Shown here in pieces: positions 1 to 12,547 of a stretch of DNA of 12,547 nt. The number at the start of each line of letters is the position of its first letter. Positions within the stretch are counted from its first letter, which is position 1. The notes beneath the pieces are model-generated. The model searched no databases, was not told where the DNA came from, and saw nothing but the letters and a program-made list of their open reading frames with translations. Source of the DNA: a virus; IMG/VR virus record IMGVR_UViG_3300045988_074307; one strand, given 5' to 3'. Made by a program: the position numbers and the translations under genes.

Positions 1-42
1 AAAGTAACCATACCCGAAACACTTGTTCGACCTCCCCAAACG
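1..42. repeat. Left inverted terminal repeat (42 bp, perfect); genome terminus and likely protein-primed replication origin
   Basis: nt 1-42 (AAAGTAACCATACCCGAAACACTTGTTCGACCTCCCCAAACG) are the exact reverse complement of nt 12506-12547. Degenerate similarity continues to about nt 57 (shared TAAATT). The end starts AAAGTA, as phi29-group termini do. Confidence 0.95.
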
Positions 43-62
43 TCTCGACGGTAAATTAAGGG

Positions 63-101
63 CTTGTATATACGATTATTATGTGCTATACTTGTATATA
101 C
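63..101. promoter_or_regulatory. Two direct copies of CTTGTATATAC (each with the 8-bp palindrome GTATATAC); candidate operators at the left promoter
   Basis: Copies lie at 63-73 and 91-101, 28 bp apart. One overlaps the -35 and the other the predicted transcription start. The same palindrome recurs at 3122-3129 inside the second rightward promoter. Confidence 0.45.
64..92 (+). promoter_or_regulatory. Sigma-A-type promoter of the left (replication) arm
   Basis: TTGTAT (64-69), 17-nt spacer, TATACT (87-92), with TG at 84-85 giving an extended -10 (TGcTATACT). It lies just inside the ITR and upstream of the first RBS-supported gene. Confidence 0.6.
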
Positions 102-139
102 CGATACAACTAAATTATTTCATGCAGAGAGGAGGAGTA

Positions 140-304
140 ATGAAAAAAACTAGAGTAATAAACATAAGGCTGACAGAAGAACAGCGGATGGAGATTGATT
201 CTCTCGCCGAACTTATGCAGACTACCCGAACCGAAGTATTATTAAAGGCGATAGCCTATTTAAAAGACCATATGGAGGAGGTGCTTGATGATGGCAAGAG
301 GTAG
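140..304 (+). CDS. Ribbon-helix-helix (CopG/Arc-like) DNA-binding protein, 54 aa; candidate transcriptional regulator
   Basis: ATG at 140 is preceded by GGAGGAG (131-137). MKKTRVINIRLTEEQRMEIDSLAELMQTTRTEVLLKAIAYLKDH fits a beta-strand/helix/helix RHH layout. The longer ORF-track start at 23 lies inside the ITR and has no RBS. Confidence 0.7.
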   Translation: MKKTRVINIRLTEEQRMEIDSLAELMQTTRTEVLLKAIAYLKDHMEEVLDDGKR

Positions 305-956
305 GAAGAAATACATAACCCCAGCCATAACACAGCTGAAAACAGTAAAGAAACCCGAGTACAGAACGATAGACGTATACGCAGGAGGATACACTTTAGG
401 AGAATTACAGGATATACGACGGGTATTAGCAAAGCAGGCAAATCAGCGGATATTGCGCCTAGAGAGAGCAAAAAGCCGCGTAACTGGTGAGAGTTACAAC
501 ACATTCGGTGCTGTTATTGATGTTTACGATTACTTAGGAAATAAAGGACGTAGACGATTTTCGGAATCAAAGACAGCTATAAAGCAGAGTAATGAACTTA
601 GGCGCGAGATAACAGTATTACAGGGATTTCTCGGAAGGAAGTCGTCAACGGTTAAAGGCATACGAGAAATAGAAAATAAGCGACTGCGGGTATTTTCGAA
701 TAAAGGGATAAAATTTGCGAATACTAGAGAATTTTATGAGTTTTTAAACTCGCAGACATTTTTAGGCTTAGTAGCAAGTGGCTACACATCTGAACAGATT
801 GTAGAAACATATGACATGGCGCGTGAAAAAGAAGACGATTATAAGGCTGTTGAGAAAATGACAAAGGCTCTTGAAGAGTTTAGAAAAGGCGAGAAAAAAG
901 TGACCATTAAAAACCTAGAGCAGACACTGGGGGTTAAGTTATTAAGTAGGCGATGA
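288..956 (+). CDS. Candidate terminal (DNA-priming) protein, about 222 aa
   Basis: It sits immediately upstream of the protein-primed polymerase, with its stop at 954-956 and the polymerase ATG at 958, the gene order seen in phi29, Cp-1 and PRD1. It has a very basic N-terminus (MMARGRKKY; phi29 TP starts MARSPR as I recall). RBS GGAGGAGG is at 274-281. I recognise no conserved motif, so the call is positional. Confidence 0.55.
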   Translation: MMARGRKKYITPAITQLKTVKKPEYRTIDVYAGGYTLGELQDIRRVLAKQANQRILRLERAKSRVTGESYNTFGAVIDVYDYLGNKGRRRFSESKTAIKQSNELRREITVLQGFLGRKSSTVKGIREIENKRLRVFSNKGIKFANTREFYEFLNSQTFLGLVASGYTSEQIVETYDMAREKEDDYKAVEKMTKALEEFRKGEKKVTIKNLEQTLGVKLLSRR

Positions 957-957
957 A

Positions 958-3117
958 ATGAGGAAAGCAAGAATAGTTAAACGCGACCTGACATATGATT
1001 ATATTGATACATTTAATATTGATGATTTCCCGTTTACACTTTTAAATAAAAAGTGTCTTAGATGCCGTGGTCAACATCCCAAAGAATATATTTACGATTA
1101 CGCAACATTCGACATTGAGACTACGACTATTGTAAATACAGGGAAACCGTTTGGTTATATGTATCACTGGCAAATGGACGTTGCGGGCTATGTAATAACT
1201 GGCAGACGTTGGAATGAATGGGTATATTTTATGGAGAAGTTAGCAGAAATATACAGAATAAATGACAACAGGCGATTAGTGATATACGTACACAATCTAG
1301 GATATGAATTTCAGTACATTCGTGATTATTTAGAAGAAAATTTCGGCGGTTATAATGTGTTTGCGACAAAAAACAGAGCGCCTATACGAGTAAATACGCA
1401 TAACGGTTTTGAGTTTCGTTGTTCTTACAAACTTACAAATATGTCATTAAACAAAGCAACGTTAAATGAACTAGGAGTAATCCATATTAAAGCGGTAGGA
1501 GACCTTGACTATAAAATTATTAGAACTGCGGAAACACCTTTAAATGACACTGAATTCGGGTATTGTGTGAGCGATGTAGTTTCTTTATATGAGCTGATTG
1601 ACAGGCGATTGATAAATGAGACGGATAATTTAGAGACAATCCCTATGACATCTACAGGCTATGTACGCAGAGATTGTCGTAAGGCATGTCGAAAAGACCA
1701 TGACTATAATAGGATGTTTACGAAATTAATAATGACACCTTATGTGTACGGTCTTCTAAAAGAAGCTGGAAGAGGAGGAAACACACACGCAAATAGGTTT
1801 ATGTCCGGTCGTATATGGAGCGATGTCGATTCTTTTGATTTTGTTTCGGACTATCCCGCGCAAATGCTGTTGCGCAAATATCCGATGAGTAAATTTGTAC
1901 CATACGGGGATATCGAGAATATGGCAGAATTTGACGACTTACTGAGAGAATATGCGTGTCTATTCCGTGTTACTCTTGTAAATGTGAAGGTTAGAGACAA
2001 TATAGCAATGCCGTATATACCGATATCTAAATGCACACAGTACATAAGAAAAGCAGAAGACAGCAATATTGAGTTGCGGCTTGATAACGGTAGAGTATTA
2101 TCTGCCCCCGCGCTGTCTATGACAATAACAGATGTAGACTACACGATTTTAAAACGACAATATAATTGGGATAGTATAGCAATACAGGATATGTGTATTG
2201 CAAACTATGACTATCTACCGAGACCAATCCGCGATTGTGTTATGGAATATTTTAAAGCAAAAACAGATTTAAAATTCGCGATACAGGAGGAAAAGCGCAG
2301 AGAAACTCCCGACCGCGAGAAACTAGAAAACCTTACTTATTTGTATGCGAAGTCAAAAAACCGTCTAAATGGTATATTCGGTATGTGCTACACAGACCCA
2401 GTACACCAACAAATTACTATAAACGAATTGGGAGAATGGGAGACTAAAGAACCCGATATAAAAACGGAATTAGATAAGTTCCATAAGTCGCGCAACTCGT
2501 TTCTATACTATCCATGGGGAGTATGGGTTACTTGTTGGGCACGCTTGCATTTAGAAGATTTGATTGACATCACGGGACAGGACAGGACTATATATTGCGA
2601 CACGGATTCTTCTAAGGCGGTCGGAGTGGATATTTCTAGTGTTGATAAATTTAACGAAAAAATAATTGCCCTCGCAGAAGAGAGGGGTGCTTATTACGAC
2701 TGTAATGGAACACGATTCTATATGGGCATAGCTGAACACGAGAACGATGAACCAATAGCGAGATTTAAAACTCTTGGGGCTAAGAAATATGTGTATCACG
2801 ACAAAGACGGGTTTCATATCACTATAGCCGGTGTTAGTAAAGCAAAAAGCTATGACACAGGAGAATATATTGCTGTAGAGGAAATGCGATGTATTAAGAA
2901 TTTTGCACCAGGATTTACATTTTCACGTGCGGGAGGTAACGAATTGGTTTATAACGATAACGTAGGCATACATAACATAACGATAGACGGTTGCACGATG
3001 GAAACGGCTAGTAATATTGCAATGTTAGATTCCACTTATACCGTGGGTATAACAGCGGAGTATGCAACTCTGATTGACTGCAATATTTATTGTGATATTG
3101 ACAAAGATATCGCTTGA
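958..3117 (+). CDS. Protein-primed family-B DNA polymerase (phi29 gp2-like), 719 aa
   Basis: Colinear motifs: Exo I FDIETT (aa 51-56), Exo II HNLGYEFQYI, Exo III YCVSDVVSLYEL, motif A DFVSDYPAQM, motif B KSKNRLNGIFGM, motif C IYCDTDS (nt 2590-2610) and the KxY-type LGAKKYVY. Confidence 0.97.
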   Translation: MRKARIVKRDLTYDYIDTFNIDDFPFTLLNKKCLRCRGQHPKEYIYDYATFDIETTTIVNTGKPFGYMYHWQMDVAGYVITGRRWNEWVYFMEKLAEIYRINDNRRLVIYVHNLGYEFQYIRDYLEENFGGYNVFATKNRAPIRVNTHNGFEFRCSYKLTNMSLNKATLNELGVIHIKAVGDLDYKIIRTAETPLNDTEFGYCVSDVVSLYELIDRRLINETDNLETIPMTSTGYVRRDCRKACRKDHDYNRMFTKLIMTPYVYGLLKEAGRGGNTHANRFMSGRIWSDVDSFDFVSDYPAQMLLRKYPMSKFVPYGDIENMAEFDDLLREYACLFRVTLVNVKVRDNIAMPYIPISKCTQYIRKAEDSNIELRLDNGRVLSAPALSMTITDVDYTILKRQYNWDSIAIQDMCIANYDYLPRPIRDCVMEYFKAKTDLKFAIQEEKRRETPDREKLENLTYLYAKSKNRLNGIFGMCYTDPVHQQITINELGEWETKEPDIKTELDKFHKSRNSFLYYPWGVWVTCWARLHLEDLIDITGQDRTIYCDTDSSKAVGVDISSVDKFNEKIIALAEERGAYYDCNGTRFYMGIAEHENDEPIARFKTLGAKKYVYHDKDGFHITIAGVSKAKSYDTGEYIAVEEMRCIKNFAPGFTFSRAGGNELVYNDNVGIHNITIDGCTMETASNIAMLDSTYTVGITAEYATLIDCNIYCDIDKDIA

Positions 3118-3186: not shown

Positions 3187-3465
3187 ATGAATAAGTCTAA
3201 TTCAAAAAAAACACTGGAGGTGTCTAGTTTTAGAGTAACGGGAGTACGAACTTTAGATAGTGGCTCAGTTTCGTTTGATATGAAATTAAATGGAATAAAT
3301 ATATACGGTTGCTTCGTAGTAGAATCGGCGGAATATGGTGATTTCATTTCGTTTCCACAAAGAAAAGGGAAAGACGGAAAGTACTACCCGATTGTACGGG
3401 CGAAACTGGATAAGGAAGATACTGCGGCAATCTTGCAGGAAGTAGAGAGAATATTAAATGAATAA
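3187..3465 (+). CDS. Small SpoVG-like nucleic-acid-binding protein, 92 aa; possible replication accessory DNA-binding protein
   Basis: RBS GGAGG is about 8 nt upstream. LEVSSFRVTGV...SFDMKLNGINIYGCFVVESAEYGDFISFPQRKGKDGKYYPIV aligns by eye with B. subtilis SpoVG (EVTDVRLRRV...[41 protein letters not shown], as I recall it). Confidence 0.45.
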   Translation: MNKSNSKKTLEVSSFRVTGVRTLDSGSVSFDMKLNGINIYGCFVVESAEYGDFISFPQRKGKDGKYYPIVRAKLDKEDTAAILQEVERILNE

Positions 3466-3476
3466 ATATGAATAAT

Positions 3477-3505
3477 GGGAGGGGTTTCCCTCCCTTATTT
3501 GTTAT
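3477..3505 (+). terminator. Intrinsic terminator or attenuator hairpin between the SpoVG-like gene and the ATPase
   Basis: A 7-bp GC-rich stem, GGGAGGG (3477-3483) with CCCTCCC (3488-3494), closes a 4-nt loop and is followed by TTATTTGTTAT. Confidence 0.5.
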
Positions 3506-3516
3506 GGAGGTATTAC

Positions 3517-4578
3517 ATGCAAAATAAAATGTTTTTAAACATTTTCGATTATAAAGACGACCGATACCCTTTTCAAATTTTTATTGGTGGTCGAGGTTTC
3601 GGTAAAACATATAGCGGGTATACTGGTTGCTTAGGTCTACAAGAAACAGCTGTAGTTCCGAAAAAATTTTTATGGATGAGGAGAACCCAAAAGGAATTAG
3701 AACTCATGGAGGATACTGAAAAGGGAGAAGGAATTGGAGATTTAAAAACAATAAACAACGATTATGGTACTAATTACGGTTTTAAAGCAATAAACGACTC
3801 TCTCGCTGGAGTATATGCTAGAGAGGTCGGCGAAAACGGAAAGTATATATACAGCGAAACACCAGTAGGCTATGGCATAGCGTTAAGTACTGTATCCTCG
3901 ATACGAGGTATAAACTTTAGTGACTGCTCGGACTGGGTATATGATGAATTTATACCCGAAAAACACGTAAAGAAAATGAAGGGTGAGTGTGACGCGCTTC
4001 TAAATGCGTATGAGACAATAAACCGTAACAGAGAGTTTACAGGAGGGCAACCTATACACCTTTGGCTATTAGCAAACTCGAACGATATTTACAATCCAAT
4101 ATTTGTAGGACTTGGAATTGTTTCTATTGCGGAAAAAATGGTGTCCAGCAATAAAAAGCATACATACATTCCCGATAGAGGTTTAGCGATACATATTTTG
4201 CCGCCGTCGCGAGAGTTCCGCGAGAAAAAGGCAAAGACAGCCCTCTATAAACTTACGAATGGTACAGAGTTTCATGACATGGCTCTTGATAACACTTTCG
4301 CGTACAATGATTTTTCTCTGATAGCATATCGAAAAATACAGGGGTATATTCCGCTTTGTGCGCTTGATAATGCGTATATATATAAGAAAAAAGGCGATTC
4401 TGAGTTATACGTTTCTTATTCGCCTGCTAAAGTGCCTATATTTAGCAGTAAGATTGCACAGGACGTTATTCGTTTTAGAAGAGAATACGGTGTTACTATA
4501 CAACCGTATTTTGTAAAAGGGCACTTGATATTTGAATCTTATGAACTTAAAGAAAAGATTTTACAAATGATATTATAA
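3517..4578 (+). CDS. DNA packaging (encapsidation) ATPase, phi29 gp16-like, 353 aa
   Basis: Walker A GGRGFGKT (aa 24-31 from ATG 3517) and Walker B-like DWVYDEF. I moved the start to ATG 3517 (GGAGG at 3506-3510) because the ORF-track start at 3475 would translate through the hairpin. Confidence 0.88.
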   Translation: MQNKMFLNIFDYKDDRYPFQIFIGGRGFGKTYSGYTGCLGLQETAVVPKKFLWMRRTQKELELMEDTEKGEGIGDLKTINNDYGTNYGFKAINDSLAGVYAREVGENGKYIYSETPVGYGIALSTVSSIRGINFSDCSDWVYDEFIPEKHVKKMKGECDALLNAYETINRNREFTGGQPIHLWLLANSNDIYNPIFVGLGIVSIAEKMVSSNKKHTYIPDRGLAIHILPPSREFREKKAKTALYKLTNGTEFHDMALDNTFAYNDFSLIAYRKIQGYIPLCALDNAYIYKKKGDSELYVSYSPAKVPIFSSKIAQDVIRFRREYGVTIQPYFVKGHLIFESYELKEKILQMIL

Positions 4579-4588
4579 GTGTTATAAT
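4560..4588 (+). promoter_or_regulatory. Near-consensus extended -10 promoter aimed into the central non-coding locus
   Basis: TTTACA (4560-4565), 17-nt spacer, TGtTATAAT (4580-4588). The -35 and spacer lie in the last ATPase codons and the -10 follows the TAA stop (4576-4578). Confidence 0.6.
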
Positions 4589-4593
4589 AGAAG

Positions 4594-4699
4594 CTGGCAG
4601 GAGCGCTAGGACTAGCTGACGGAATCAGCGGCGCATGGTCTTGTCCGCCATAAGCCTGCTAGAAGCCCAGTAGATAATCTACTGGGCTTCTTTGATTTT
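4594..4699 (+). ncRNA. Candidate structured ncRNA of about 105 nt, possibly a pRNA-like packaging RNA
   Basis: This GC-rich non-coding gap between convergent stop codons has a dedicated promoter (4560-4588) and terminator (4661-4699). Helix candidates: 4594-4601/4655-4662, 4603-4606/4631-4634, 4615-4619/4625-4629 and 4635-4638/4648-4651. No RBS-supported ORF is present. Confidence 0.45.
4661..4699. terminator. Intrinsic terminator at the convergence point of the two arms
   Basis: A perfect 13-bp stem, AGAAGCCCAGTAG (4661-4673) with CTACTGGGCTTCT (4679-4691), closes a 5-nt loop ATAAT. It is followed on the + strand by TTGATTTT. There is no comparable U-tract for leftward transcripts, so it looks stronger for rightward transcription. 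Confidence 0.8.
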
Positions 4700-5735
4700 A
4701 GAACGGTCTGCGACGTATCGTCATATTTATTGAGAATGTAGTACCTGCAGTGATTGTAGCACCCCCGTCTGCAAATATACGCATACCTCCCACTGTGTAT
4801 GCGCTTGATAATGTAACAGGCGGCGCGAAATCACACATAACACTTGTAATACCCGATAAATCTCGTCTCGGAATGGAACATGACAATGGTGTAGGGAATG
4901 TAAATGGTGCTGGAATGTCGCAAACGTCAACATCGTCTGCACCAATAGTTTTAGTTGCTTTTATACTTCCTGCAAATGTAATGCTATCCGTATCCATGTA
5001 TATTGCAAGATTGCTAGTATCCCAACCATCGTGTGCGGTTGGTGCAGTAATGTAAGAGCTGGTTCTGCGCTCGTAATACGTGCCATTTAGCAATGCTACC
5101 ATACACTTTGCAAGAATATCATAACCGAAAATTGTTGGGTGTATGTTGTCCGAGCTTACATACTGCGGATAACCTACCAACGCTGTAGCGCATTCGGGGT
5201 AGTAATACACTGGTGTGTTTGGGTCGTCTCCGTATCCTAAAGCTCCGAAGACTTTCCAGCTATCGAATGTTGTAAACGACACGGAGCCCCAGCAAGGAAA
5301 CTGCACTATTTTTGCGGCAGGAAACGACCGCTGTAAATAACTGCGCAATGAGTTGGCACTCCCTGCTACATCCGCAGATGAGTTAAAATTTACGTCATTT
5401 ATGCCGCCGATTATAACCACGTATTTTACTTTATTATGGCTGTATGTAACATCATCGTTCGCACGCTCTGCCTGCGACATAAATAAATTGCCAGCGATAG
5501 TATAGCCGCTACCCGATACACCATAGTTGTGTAACCGCAATCCTAAGTATTTTGCAAGAAGAGTAGGCAATTGTTGCTCTGTTGGCACGATACCACCCGC
5601 AGTTACACCCTGAGTAAAACTGTCGCCTATAACGACTATTTCTGTTTTTTCTATTCTATTAATCGCGTCCCTCACGTCCCTGTCTTTAACAGCGACTAAC
5701 TCTCCGTTTAAATCAAATTCTGAAACATATTTCAT
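4698..5735 (-). CDS. Tail appendage / receptor-interacting protein with an SGNH (GDSL) esterase domain and a C-terminal beta-rich domain, 345 aa
   Basis: SGNH blocks: I VVIGDSFTQG, II GVSGSGY, III VVIIGGINDV, V SSDNIHPT. Start set at ATG 5735 with AGGAGGA (5741-5747) 5 nt upstream. It is the last gene of the structural operon, in the position of phi29 gp12. Confidence 0.8.
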   Translation of the reverse strand: MKYVSEFDLNGELVAVKDRDVRDAINRIEKTEIVVIGDSFTQGVTAGGIVPTEQQLPTLLAKYLGLRLHNYGVSGSGYTIAGNLFMSQAERANDDVTYSHNKVKYVVIIGGINDVNFNSSADVAGSANSLRSYLQRSFPAAKIVQFPCWGSVSFTTFDSWKVFGALGYGDDPNTPVYYYPECATALVGYPQYVSSDNIHPTIFGYDILAKCMVALLNGTYYERRTSSYITAPTAHDGWDTSNLAIYMDTDSITFAGSIKATKTIGADDVDVCDIPAPFTFPTPLSCSIPRRDLSGITSVMCDFAPPVTLSSAYTVGGMRIFADGGATITAGTTFSINMTIRRRPF

Positions 5736-6775: not shown

Positions 6776-7480
6776 CTAATAAATCTGTACAATAAACTCG
6801 TGTTCAAACATTTCGGCAATCATCGCATAAAGGTCATATTTTACTCGCATGTCTTCCTCTGCCGAAATCATTTCTTGGTTGGTTGTAACACCAATGTTAC
6901 CATGCGCTCGTAAGACCTCTGTCTCGTCTCGTACAGCACCATAATTTACTGTAGAATTGTCATCGGCGCTAGTATTTGTAGAATTTACGTATTTGTCCGC
7001 GCCGCTGTTGCTAGTAGTGTCATTACGGCTATTGCCTGTTTTATTACGGTTTGTGTATTCATTTGTGTTGTATGCACTTACAGCTTCGGTGCTTTCCCCA
7101 GCGCTTATGGTTGTTGTCTGCGTACCTAGTGTTGTTGTGTCTTCACGTTTATTTTCATCGGTATATTTGCGCTCCGTTACGTCTCTACCCGAATTAGTGT
7201 AATTCCTAGACGATGTTTCGTAGCGGTCATAGTTCTCTATCGGGTTGTATGTTGCAGTAAGAGCTTTAAACATCTGTTCGAAATCATAACGTCGCCGTAA
7301 AAACCAGTAAGATATGTTAATTTTTAACATCGGCGGTGTCTGATAATAGGGGAATAAATCTCCCGACCGAGATATTATCTCGTTTATAAGAATATCCCTA
7401 TTTAACCCATCGGGCAGTACAACACCATCAAAAAGCGTTTTATCATATAGTAGCATTCCATATAGCGTTATCCTAGGCAT
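6776..7480 (-). CDS. Lower collar (phi29 gp11-like) candidate, 234 aa
   Basis: It lies immediately downstream of the portal gene. ATG 7480 overlaps the portal stop by 8 nt, with GGAGG at 7493-7497. The central Ser/Thr/Asn-rich segment has no hydrophobic core and could form extended tube hairpins. The call is positional; I rejected the GTG start at 7522, which has no RBS. Confidence 0.5.
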   Translation of the reverse strand: MPRITLYGMLLYDKTLFDGVVLPDGLNRDILINEIISRSGDLFPYYQTPPMLKINISYWFLRRRYDFEQMFKALTATYNPIENYDRYETSSRNYTNSGRDVTERKYTDENKREDTTTLGTQTTTISAGESTEAVSAYNTNEYTNRNKTGNSRNDTTSNSGADKYVNSTNTSADDNSTVNYGAVRDETEVLRAHGNIGVTTNQEMISAEEDMRVKYDLYAMIAEMFEHEFIVQIY

Positions 7481-8375
7481 TATCTTCACCGTCCTCCGTA
7501 TATTTGTATGCACACTCAACACGCAAACCTAACTCGCCTGAGGATAACCTATTCAAATTTTCAAACGATTCAGAGATATTTGCATAGATTACCGAGATAA
7601 TAGAGCGTGTCTCGTCGTTGTTTTCACTAACCTCCTGCGAATTTAGACGTTCTTTTTTATCATAATTAGCGTTGCGGATTCCTATTTTTGTTAGAAACTC
7701 GTTTGTTACGGTTCTCTTTGCCTGTAATAACACGTCTACGATAAAGTTACTTTTTACCGATGGAAAAAAAGGTTTTAAACCGCTATCGCCGACAACATGC
7801 TTATTTACAGTTACAAGCGGATTTCCCTGTGTCGCCGTTGCGTAAGCTTCTTTAATAGTGTCAGCATCTTTTTTGCTCTCGGCTTCGAACAAAAATGCAA
7901 CATTTGTATTCATTAAAGCAATATCAATTGCCTTGTCAATATTAGATAATTTAGTTGCAAATCTAGTTACAAGGTCATCCAATCCGTAGTAGTCATCCAG
8001 TAGTTTAACAATCTCCGCGTTTACACCAATACGACCGATTTTGTCTCCACTAAGAAAAGGCGACGTGACAATAATATCCTTCGGTTGATAGTACAAATTT
8101 AATTTTTGGATTCCGTAAGGATATGCAATCCACCCCATCTCGCGCGTATACAATACTGCTATCGACCCGTAATGAAATAGCCAGTATCGAAACCAATTAA
8201 GTTCCCAATTCTTCGGTAGAGTAAATTTAAAAACGGAGTAAATCTGCGTCCATAAATACCGTTTATTATAGTCCGTCTCAGCATTCCAAACACCCTTAAC
8301 TTGCGACGGCTGTTGATTAAAAAAATCCATAAACGACTGTGCGCTATAATCTAATGGAGCATTAAAATTATACAT
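7473..8375 (-). CDS. Portal / upper collar connector (phi29 gp10-like), 300 aa
   Basis: FLTKIGIRNANYDKKERLNSQEVSENNDETRS closely matches the phi29 gp10 segment [32 protein letters not shown] as I recall it. Size is similar (phi29 gp10 is about 309 aa) and the C-terminus is acidic. Confidence 0.88.
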   Translation of the reverse strand: MYNFNAPLDYSAQSFMDFFNQQPSQVKGVWNAETDYNKRYLWTQIYSVFKFTLPKNWELNWFRYWLFHYGSIAVLYTREMGWIAYPYGIQKLNLYYQPKDIIVTSPFLSGDKIGRIGVNAEIVKLLDDYYGLDDLVTRFATKLSNIDKAIDIALMNTNVAFLFEAESKKDADTIKEAYATATQGNPLVTVNKHVVGDSGLKPFFPSVKSNFIVDVLLQAKRTVTNEFLTKIGIRNANYDKKERLNSQEVSENNDETRSIISVIYANISESFENLNRLSSGELGLRVECAYKYTEDGEDNA

Positions 8376-10601: not shown

Positions 10602-10787
10602 CTACTGTGTCAACTTGTCTTTTAACTCTGTGATAACAATTTTTAAGTCTGCTAATGCTTCGGTTACTTTGCTCATTTCTTCCTTATGTGCGTCCGTCTG
10701 ATTCTTGTTTACGTAAGCCATATAAATACACGCAACAATAGGAAAGCCTACAGAACTAACCGCCGTTAATACTCCGTTTACGTCCAT
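10602..10787 (-). CDS. Holin candidate (BhlA/UviB-like architecture), 61 aa
   Basis: It has a single N-terminal transmembrane segment (GVLTAVSSVGFPIVACIYMAYV) and a charged helical C-terminus. RBS AGGAGG. It lies directly upstream of the endolysin. Confidence 0.65.
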   Translation of the reverse strand: MDVNGVLTAVSSVGFPIVACIYMAYVNKNQTDAHKEEMSKVTEALADLKIVITELKDKLTQ

Positions 10788-12505: not shown

Positions 12506-12547
12506 CGTTTGGGGAGGTCGAACAAGTGTTTCGGGTATGGTTACTTT
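12506..12547. repeat. Right inverted terminal repeat (42 bp, perfect)
   Basis: Exact reverse complement of nt 1-42. Confidence 0.95.

Follow-up and report, generated by a model that had tools for sequence, protein, structure and literature searches.

A conserved structured RNA beside the packaging ATPase gene of phi29-like gut and rumen phages, a candidate compact packaging RNA

The question raised by the 119-nt gap behind the packaging ATPase gene of a small phi29-like phage genome is whether it holds a gene for a functional RNA and, if so, whether that RNA belongs to the DNA-packaging motor. The sequence under study (IMG/VR virus record IMGVR_UViG_3300045988_074307) is referred to as the window, meaning the whole stretch of 12,547 nt that was analysed. 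A previous reading, made from the letters of the window alone and here called the sequence-only reading, had proposed a self-contained locus for an RNA resembling the packaging or prohead RNA (pRNA) of phage phi29. Comparison of the locus with its relatives establishes, at the level of sequence, a real and strand-specific RNA gene that is under selection for its fold. The preferred interpretation is that this gene encodes a compact pRNA-type packaging RNA, to which a probability of roughly 0.6 is given. From the earlier proposal, the RNA gene, the pRNA-like architecture and a pair of complementary loops were retained, while the two loops that it had paired were the wrong ones and the Rfam model of pRNA does not match.

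No RNA other than pRNA is known to form part of a viral DNA-packaging motor, and pRNA is also widely used in RNA nanotechnology. A 2024 review describes it as unique to phi29 and related Bacillus phages (PMC11476376). A structure-based search published in 2025 reported 12 new pRNAs, and the phages named in the available part of that article are all Bacillus phages (PMC12670572). Lactococcus phage asccphi28 was picked as a model because it was without evidence of a pRNA (PMC7823558). No family in Rfam 15 matches the RNA described here, and a literature search, whose coverage left subscription journals outside, found no description of it.

Covariation of the fold among relatives

Relatives were collected by ATPase-based searches of IMG/VR, yielding contigs of 12-15 kb with ATPases 30-53% identical to that of the window. 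In GenBank, the relatives comprised phage scaffolds from human faeces that carry no annotation, together with two cultured Amedibacillus phages, AD70P2 and AD70P3 (OP172638/9). At three loci with ATPases 52-53% identical to the window's (L002-L004), the sequence right after the ATPase stop codon aligns with the window; the TGTTATAAT box and the CGGAA loop are shared, the stems are compensated and the terminator is present. The same RNA design was visible by eye at the majority of the remoter loci.

A MAFFT alignment of 16 hand-cut cores was structurally inconsistent, and in one of 9 sequences the window and L010 were still out of register. For this reason, the first covariance model was seeded with five ungapped sequences of a distant clade and a hand-written structure, after which the remaining sequences were aligned using Infernal. 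This model gave 45 matches and placed the window at exactly 4596-4660 (15.1 bits, E 0.45 in 1.1 Mb). The rebuilt model found 70 of 89 viral loci and, with filters switched off, 7 more (77/89). The second model, which had been trained with the window included, scored it at 41.6 bits; for L002-L004, members of the same clade that were not used in training, E was ~2e-6. Among independent contigs binned with metagenome-assembled genomes from gut, rumen and caecum, 27 of 37 were matched. Each locus found in this way has one match, on the ATPase strand and a few tens of nucleotides past the ATPase stop codon, with the exception of L006 and the L133 clade (see below).

A look-alike of the RNA is present directly past the ATPase gene of the cultured phage AD70P3 (L007, OP172639; 5862-5933). 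It has a TTGACA promoter, a helix A of GAGGG/CCCUC, an E-hairpin loop CCGAA and a bulge UAUCC facing a D loop GGAUA. The D stem is weak, and covariance models R2 and R3 miss this look-alike, so that its membership is by inspection only.

Selection on the fold was assessed for 85 distinct sequences. The helix alignments were fitted to the covariance model and the pairing figures therefore lean towards the structure, but the margins are large: 92.1% of the cells are in standard pairs compared to 54.0% in shuffles, and 710 cells carry changes on both sides compared to 205. The helix covariation score is 0.864 against 0.174 in shuffled alignments (reached in 0 of 500), and it does not exceed 0.105 when the partners are slid by 1-3 columns. 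All four nested helices are 96.8-100% paired: helix A at 96.8% over its six model pairs, helix C at 99.7%, the E stem at 100% and the D stem at 99.3%. Double changes occur at every pair, including all 4 of helix C. An alignment of homologues, which had been suggested together with the sequence-only reading, finds all four helices covarying. Across the family, G.U pairs in the helices outnumber A.C combinations 65 to 2, and the functional strand is therefore the plus strand, the same as that of the ATPase gene.

A second layer of covariation concerns the loops. The sequence-only reading had joined the two hairpin loops through CGGA (4620-4623) and UCCG (4644-4647). These letters are present, but the D loop is complementary to the E loop in only 3 of 89 distinct members. 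As the E loop is near-invariant while the D loop varies, the complementarity of the two tetranucleotides is regarded as a by-product, and the covariation expected between them was not observed. The D loop covaries instead with a bulge of 7-8 nt that separates helix C from helix E on the 5' side. The bulge is called R and its complement in the D loop L; their positions in the window are listed in Table 1. Examples of R/L from other loci are GGUCA/UGACC (L002), AGUCA/UGACU (L016), UGCAC/GUGCA (L024), GUCCA/UGGAC (L036) and AAAGGAA/UUCCUUU (L008). In fixed columns, the R/L covariation score is 0.348 compared to 0.098 in shuffles (0/500), with slid controls at or below 0.083. In a register-free comparison, at least 4 Watson-Crick base pairs were possible in 83% of the R/L pairs taken from the same member and in 9.6% of the pairs taken across members; replication on an independent set gave 70% and 7.6%, respectively. 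The covariance models hold no such pairing, and the R-L test is therefore independent of the alignment fit. By these comparisons R and L covary. By analogy with phi29 pRNA, their pairing would be intermolecular.

The E loop reads CGGAA in nearly all members, with CUGAA, CAGAA, CCGAA and CGAAA as rare variants. A subclade consisting of L068, L069 and L080-L090 (e.g. L080 3529-3612) lacks the CGGAA hairpin and has in its place two hairpins (CACGUUGGGAGCGUG and GGAUCAUAAUGAUCC) that together make a larger insert, so that the CGGAA loop does not occur throughout the family. The covarying pair of bulge and D loop is kept in this subclade, as are helices A, C and D.

Taken by themselves, the features of the locus in the window are weak evidence and do not go beyond chance; the RNA is called real because the comparison with relatives shows covariation. 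Several features named in the sequence-only reading were nevertheless recovered. The gap between the convergent stop codons (4579-4697), described there as the sole sizeable non-coding stretch, exceeds every other intergenic gap in the window, the second largest being 69 nt. The G+C richness is confirmed as well (0.609 at 4594-4662 against 0.405 for the whole window; top 1.25% of 69-nt windows). The promoter, which had been ranked as the best in the window, is present and is the only one of the three top sites with a TG element, but its score is equalled by the two others; the window has no excess of promoter-like sites (29 found, 34.9 expected). The terminator and its T tract lie where they had been placed, with a stem of 14 pairs instead of 13. 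Together, the promoter and terminator positions predict a transcript of a length close to the ~105 nt given earlier, made up of a 69-nt three-way-junction core followed by the terminator hairpin and the U tract.

The minimum-free-energy fold of 4594-4662 contains helix A (4594-4601/4655-4662), helix C (4603-4607/4630-4634), a hairpin with loop CGGAA (4615-4619/4625-4629) and a second hairpin (4635-4639/4647-4651), which matches exactly the closing helix and two arms that had been drawn by eye. Folding of 4594-4699, the stretch for which this check had been proposed, gives z = -4.46, owed mostly to the terminator hairpin, whereas the core 4594-4662 has no more than chance stability (z = -1.23; equalled by 22 of 200 shuffled sequences). 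A loose topology descriptor for single sequences has ~25 chance matches within the window.

Table 1. Positions in the window of the RNA locus, its parts and the genes discussed in the text.
Feature	Position	Strand	Remarks
Phi29-type DNA packaging ATPase gene	3475..4578	+	phrog_2150, E 1.4e-34; directly upstream of the RNA
Sigma-70-type promoter, TTTACA, 17-nt spacer, TG-n-TATAAT	4560..4588	+	Overlaps the last ATPase codons and stop codon; 11/12
Predicted primary transcript, ~102-106 nt	4594..4699	+	From promoter and terminator positions and fold; both ends predicted
Helix A, 5' strand CUGGCAGG	4594..4601	+	Pairs with 4655-4662; 8 bp here, 6-17 bp in relatives
Helix C, 5' strand GCGC	4603..4606	+	Pairs with 4631-4634
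R bulge UAGGACUA, 5' side between helices C and E	4607..4614	+	GGAC 4609-4612 complementary to GUCC 4643-4646
E hairpin	4615..4629	+	Stem 4615-4619/4625-4629, loop CGGAA 4620-4624
Helix C, 3' strand GCGC	4631..4634	+	Minimum-free-energy fold; G4630 sits between helices E and C
D hairpin	4635..4651	+	Stem 4635-4639/4647-4651, loop CUUGUCC; L = GUCC 4643-4646
Junction strand AAG, helix D to helix A	4652..4654	+	Family consensus A-u-G-A-a (alignments A7, A10)
Helix A, 3' strand CCUGCUAG	4655..4662	+	Last 2 nt shared with the terminator stem
Intrinsic terminator, 14-bp stem (pairs 4661-4691), 3-nt loop, T tract	4661..4699	+	Also ends the convergent tail-gene operon
Upper collar connector (portal) gene	7473..8375	-	phrog_2038, E 2.3e-22; PDB 1h5w (phi29 connector, gp10), 1.2e-10
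Holin-like gene	10602..10787	-	Homologue of the gene 3' of the RNA in most relatives; without such a leader here

The RNA gene and its genomic contexts

A sigma-70-type promoter scoring at least 9/12 was found within 70 nt upstream of the RNA in 55 of 57 distinct members, usually as TTGACA-17-TATAAT. In most members, 4-10 nt separate the end of the -10 element from the foot of helix A.

Downstream, the surroundings differ between clades. In the clade of the window (the window, L002-L004, L013, L014 and L096), a strong terminator and then a convergent gene lie downstream of the RNA; the holin gene is located elsewhere and has no such leader. In the L133 clade (ATPase 53% identical to the window's), the ATPase gene is followed by a terminator only, and the RNA is found ~5.4 kb from it on the opposite strand, antisense to all its neighbours, with a promoter (TTGCAT-17-TATAAT) and a terminator of its own. 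In most relatives, helix A is followed at a distance of 16-60 nt, with no strong terminator in between, by a ribosome-binding site and a gene for a small membrane protein (MD..GFPI..) that is homologous to the holin of the window. In L006, the RNA is far from the ATPase gene and stands in front of the holin gene. The sole constant across these contexts is one copy per genome. Within the stand-alone clades, both the fold and the bulge-loop pairing still covary. As judged from these arrangements, the RNA is an independent gene and transcription unit that is found in three genomic contexts, and a purely cis-acting role is argued against by the terminator in the clade of the window, by the isolation of the RNA in the L133 clade and by the covariation in the stand-alone clades. 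The description of the locus as a self-contained non-coding RNA gene with its own promoter and terminator is thereby supported by the relatives.

Of 83 members, 47 (57%; e.g. L014 3310-3320, L120, L097) have at least 4 T residues among the 8 nt that directly follow helix A, compared to a background of 13.5%, a comparison that is suggestive only, since the background is mostly coding sequence. In front of the holin gene, helix A may have a second role as a leaky intrinsic terminator, by which a short RNA is released.

A palindrome, TTTCACGTGAAA, was observed in the spacer of the promoter of the RNA in L027 (~3500-3535) and is repeated after the RNA in L080-L090. It resembles an operator for a phage or host regulator.

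Comparison with phi29 pRNA and weighing of the readings

Phi29 pRNA self-associates through intermolecular pairing of its CE loop and D loop, thereby building the prohead ring, and its bases 1-28 and 92-117 together with the C18C19A20 bulge are needed for packaging and for binding of the ATPase gp16 (PMC5066667). In the Rfam consensus of pRNA (RF00044), helix A is followed by 1 nt, helix C, a 9-nt 5' bulge, a 4-bp E hairpin, 0 nt, the closing strand of C, 3 nt, the D hairpin and the closing strand of helix A. In the new family, helix A is followed by 1 nt, helix C, a 7-8-nt 5' bulge, an E hairpin of 4-5 bp, 0-1 nt, the closing strand of C, 0-2 nt, the D hairpin, 3-5 nt and the closing strand of helix A. 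The two structures have their elements in the same order.

The likeness extends to several further points. In both RNAs, a three-way junction is closed by a helix between the 5' end and the 3' end; one arm consists of helix C, a bulge on the 5' side and the E hairpin, and the other of the D hairpin. Complementarity between bulge and D loop spans 4-5 bp, the two covary, and the bases of the bulge that take part in the pairing are adjacent to helix E. Both genes have their own promoter, which puts the start of the transcript at the foot of helix A. Both are carried by phages with a gp16-type ATPase, a gp10-type connector and protein-primed replication. Where pRNA has its domain II after domain I, the window has a 3' hairpin of 14 bp after the core; this hairpin is an ordinary terminator, and most relatives have none.

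On this basis, the following mechanism is proposed. Host RNA polymerase would start ~5-7 nt after TATAAT, at the foot of helix A, and stop at the intrinsic terminator, releasing an RNA of ~105 nt. Its 69-nt core would fold into a three-way junction of helix A, an arm made up of helix C, the R bulge and the E hairpin with its CGGAA loop, and a second arm formed by the D hairpin. The R bulge (GGAC) of one molecule would pair with the D loop (GUCC) of the next, so that a ring is assembled on the portal vertex of the prohead. Helix A would point outward and dock the packaging ATPase encoded just upstream, and the CGGAA loop would serve as a protein contact. The connector is the presumed docking partner of the RNA. 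In short, the packaging role, the intermolecular nature of the R-L pairing, ring formation, binding to portal and ATPase, and the transcript ends are inferred.

Several findings weigh against a packaging RNA. Phi29 itself, used as positive control, is scored by RF00044 at 145.4 bits (threshold 100), yet in the window this model gives no match at E up to 10, not even when 4570-4710 (141 nt) is searched alone; the covariance scan put forward with the sequence-only reading was thus negative. The relatives are without an RF00044 match too. Conversely, models R2 and R3 have no match in phi29, Cp-1, CI644P6 or phiCPV4, and homology to pRNA is therefore unproven; the absence of sequence similarity to phi29 pRNA had been recognized in the earlier reading. 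Helix A is an uninterrupted helix of 8 bp (6-17 bp in the family) without a CCA bulge, as opposed to ~25 bp in phi29 pRNA. The N-terminus of the phi29 gp10 connector carries a basic RKR motif that binds pRNA, and no RKR motif is present at the N-terminus of the window's portal protein (MYNFNAPLDYSAQSF; MYNFNAPLDYS...). The phi29-like phage asccphi28 is reported to be without evidence of a pRNA and to have an ATPase that forms rings alone (PMC7823558). Finally, the R-L pairing could be an intramolecular pseudoknot, and the position of the RNA between promoter and holin gene in most relatives also fits a leader function.

Other differences from phi29 pRNA are of size and setting. The core measures 63-70 nt in the family (69 nt in the window) compared to 117-120 nt for domain I, and the predicted transcript ~105 nt compared to 174 nt. 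Helix C has 4 bp here and 9 bp in phi29, and the junction strands are 1 / 0-2 / 3-5 nt instead of 1 / 3 / 0 nt. The E loop is near-invariant CGGAA here. The gene is usually located right after the ATPase gene, whereas that of pRNA is at the genome end, and the hosts are uncultured gut and rumen bacteria rather than Bacillus. Because of these differences, the RNA is not filed as a member of RF00044 and is called a pRNA-like variant.

Two further comparisons were tried and rejected. A loose descriptor of the elements A, C, R, E and D with at least 4 bp of R-L pairing, applied to phi29, Cp-1, CI644P6, phiCPV4 and asccphi28, returned dozens of chance matches per genome. Coaxial stacking of the terminator hairpin on helix A, as a mimic of a long helix A, was discarded because in relatives 6-8 nt separate the two or the terminator is missing.

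The sequence-only reading had argued that motors of the phi29 family require a pRNA. This premise is not established: the available literature confines pRNA to Bacillus phages and describes asccphi28 as without evidence of one (PMC11476376, PMC7823558), and in view of that phage a pRNA is not a given for phi29-type motors. Asccphi28 is likewise a small protein-primed podophage, its ATPase (7jq6) matches that of the window about as well as gp16 does, and its layout is similar, with polymerase and ATPase genes on one strand and convergent structural genes. What sets the window and its relatives apart from it is that they retain a conserved gene for a structured RNA. As a separate observation, the 577-bp terminal repeat of asccphi28 (L095, EU438902) is annotated with a promoter (P1) and a terminator (T1) that enclose no coding sequence (23-401, minus strand; mirror copy in the right repeat), implying a non-coding transcript of ~350 nt per end, at the site where phi29 keeps its pRNA. 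This implied transcript has z = -3.0 relative to shuffles, partly from the terminator, and no Rfam pRNA match; the left terminal repeat (1-620) gave no match to Rfam as a whole.

The best-surviving rival, possible but doubtful, is a trans-acting structured RNA with a role outside packaging, for example a protein-sequestering RNA, a regulatory RNA or an anti-defence decoy, in which R and L form an intramolecular pseudoknot that compacts the three-way junction. Independent-gene status and covariation fit any trans-acting structured RNA equally well, and the near-invariant CGGAA loop suggests a specific ligand or protein. The missing pRNA match in Rfam, the short helix A and the portal without RKR point in the same direction. 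A cis contact is conceivable, as helices C and D both have ~4 bp, which places R and L at similar height and side by side. Against this, 5 of the 7 loop bases would be paired between 4-bp C and D stems with a linker of 0-2 nt, and on geometric grounds such a cis helix is judged to be strained. Moreover, there is no Rfam class that matches, and the element-by-element agreement with pRNA in a phi29-type phage would have to be coincidence. The RNA is also near-universal in a clade of 12-15 kb genomes, and genomes of this size rarely retain accessory genes.

An unlikely alternative is a cis-acting 5' leader of the holin or late operon (an attenuator, riboswitch, antiterminator or messenger RNA stabiliser), of which the window would hold a stranded copy. 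It draws on the ribosome-binding site and holin-like gene that follow helix A in most relatives with no strong terminator in between, on L006, where the RNA travels with the holin gene and away from the ATPase gene, and on the U-rich tract after helix A, which resembles an attenuator. The purine riboswitch is a three-way junction with a closing helix and two arms whose distal loops touch. Aptamers of this kind share with the RNA the closing helix and the contact between two arms, and they often lie in a 5' leader before a terminator or ribosome-binding site, as the RNA does in most relatives. They differ in that one partner of the contact is here a bulge and 4-5 canonical pairs covary freely, and in that the RNA persists where no gene lies downstream. 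A known riboswitch or self-cleaving ribozyme was considered and rejected: none is matched in Rfam, and the lengths of the junction strands are unfit for a hammerhead core. The leader reading is further countered by the clade of the window, where strong terminator and convergent gene leave nothing to regulate, by the isolated, antisense-oriented RNA of the L133 clade with its own terminator, by the window's own holin gene, which starts 11 nt past the capsid gene, and by the covariation that continues in the stand-alone clades.

The view that there is no functional RNA, but only promoter-like sequence and a bidirectional terminator between convergent operons with a chance fold, could appeal to the ordinary stability of the core, the lack of promoter enrichment and the number of chance topologies, but it is already refuted by the covariation data (both-side changes and the excess of G.U over A.C) and, with one match per genome at a constant position in more than 100 divergent genomes, a chance fold is excluded.

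If the locus does encode a pRNA, packaging that depends on RNA would also be found in the gut and rumen, in a phage group that is large and abundant. A pRNA of ~65-70 nt, represented by more than 80 covarying sequences, would be a minimal form found in nature and useful for questions about structure and essential parts, whether the RNA is ancient or derived would become testable by comparison, and phages presumed to be without pRNA would merit another look. The odds are about even for a stronger version, namely that this is a true minimal pRNA and that, across a large clade of uncultured phi29-like phages with genomes of 12-15 kb from gut and rumen anaerobes, an RNA ring scaffolding the ATPase is widespread and probably an ancestral trait. 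The core would then be half the size of phi29 pRNA, and the RNA ring would not be peculiar to the Bacillus relatives of phi29. In most genomes, the RNA would form the 5' end of the holin or late transcript, with helix A and the U tract as a possible leaky terminator, and the supply of packaging RNA could be coupled to the timing of lysis-gene expression. Even if the RNA has another function, the support for it as a new family of structured RNA, without an entry in Rfam, is strong.

Genome context and minor observations

The window is taken to be a complete linear phi29-like phage genome because of a perfect 42-bp inverted repeat at its two ends (1-42 and 12506-12547), which begins with AAAGTA. 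The terminal repeat of phi29 opens with the identical six bases (PMC11476376). Replication is probably protein-primed; a gene for a protein-primed family-B DNA polymerase is located at 958-3117 on the plus strand. Among PDB entries, the ATPase matches 7jqq (phi29 gp16; 5.9e-12) and 7jq6 (asccphi28 gp11; 2.7e-10). The PHROG and PDB matches agree with the earlier statement that a phi29-type portal and ATPase are both encoded. A tail protein, an endolysin and the major head protein are also encoded on the minus strand.

Megablast of the whole window against GenBank phages gave no match. ARAGORN detected no tRNA in the window, Rfam and ARAGORN detected no further RNA gene, and the covariance models found a single copy of the RNA. 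The same sequence is also present as IMG/VR contig UViG_3300045988_062711.

A weak Rfam match to PrrB/RsmZ was obtained at 3373-3502 of the window (26.6 bits, threshold 44; E 0.007). The matching stretch ends in a GGGAGGG/CCCTCCC hairpin (3477-3494) that overlaps the start codon of the ATPase gene and resembles a terminator separating a 92-amino-acid open reading frame from that gene; the match is probably due to chance.

Contigs L096-L132 (12-15 kb) were binned with widely differing metagenome-assembled genomes (Clostridia, Bacteroidales, Elusimicrobia, Alphaproteobacteria and Spirochaetia), the samples being of gut, rumen and caecum. They have the appearance of free phage genomes caught up in the binning, and the bin names are therefore unreliable as indications of hosts. 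Short tandem repeats were seen just past the ATPase terminator, near the contig end, in L012 (~3640-3790; unit roughly GTGTACGGCTGATCGT) and in L122 (~2900-2950; unit roughly GGTCGGTGTT), and these may be genome-end features.

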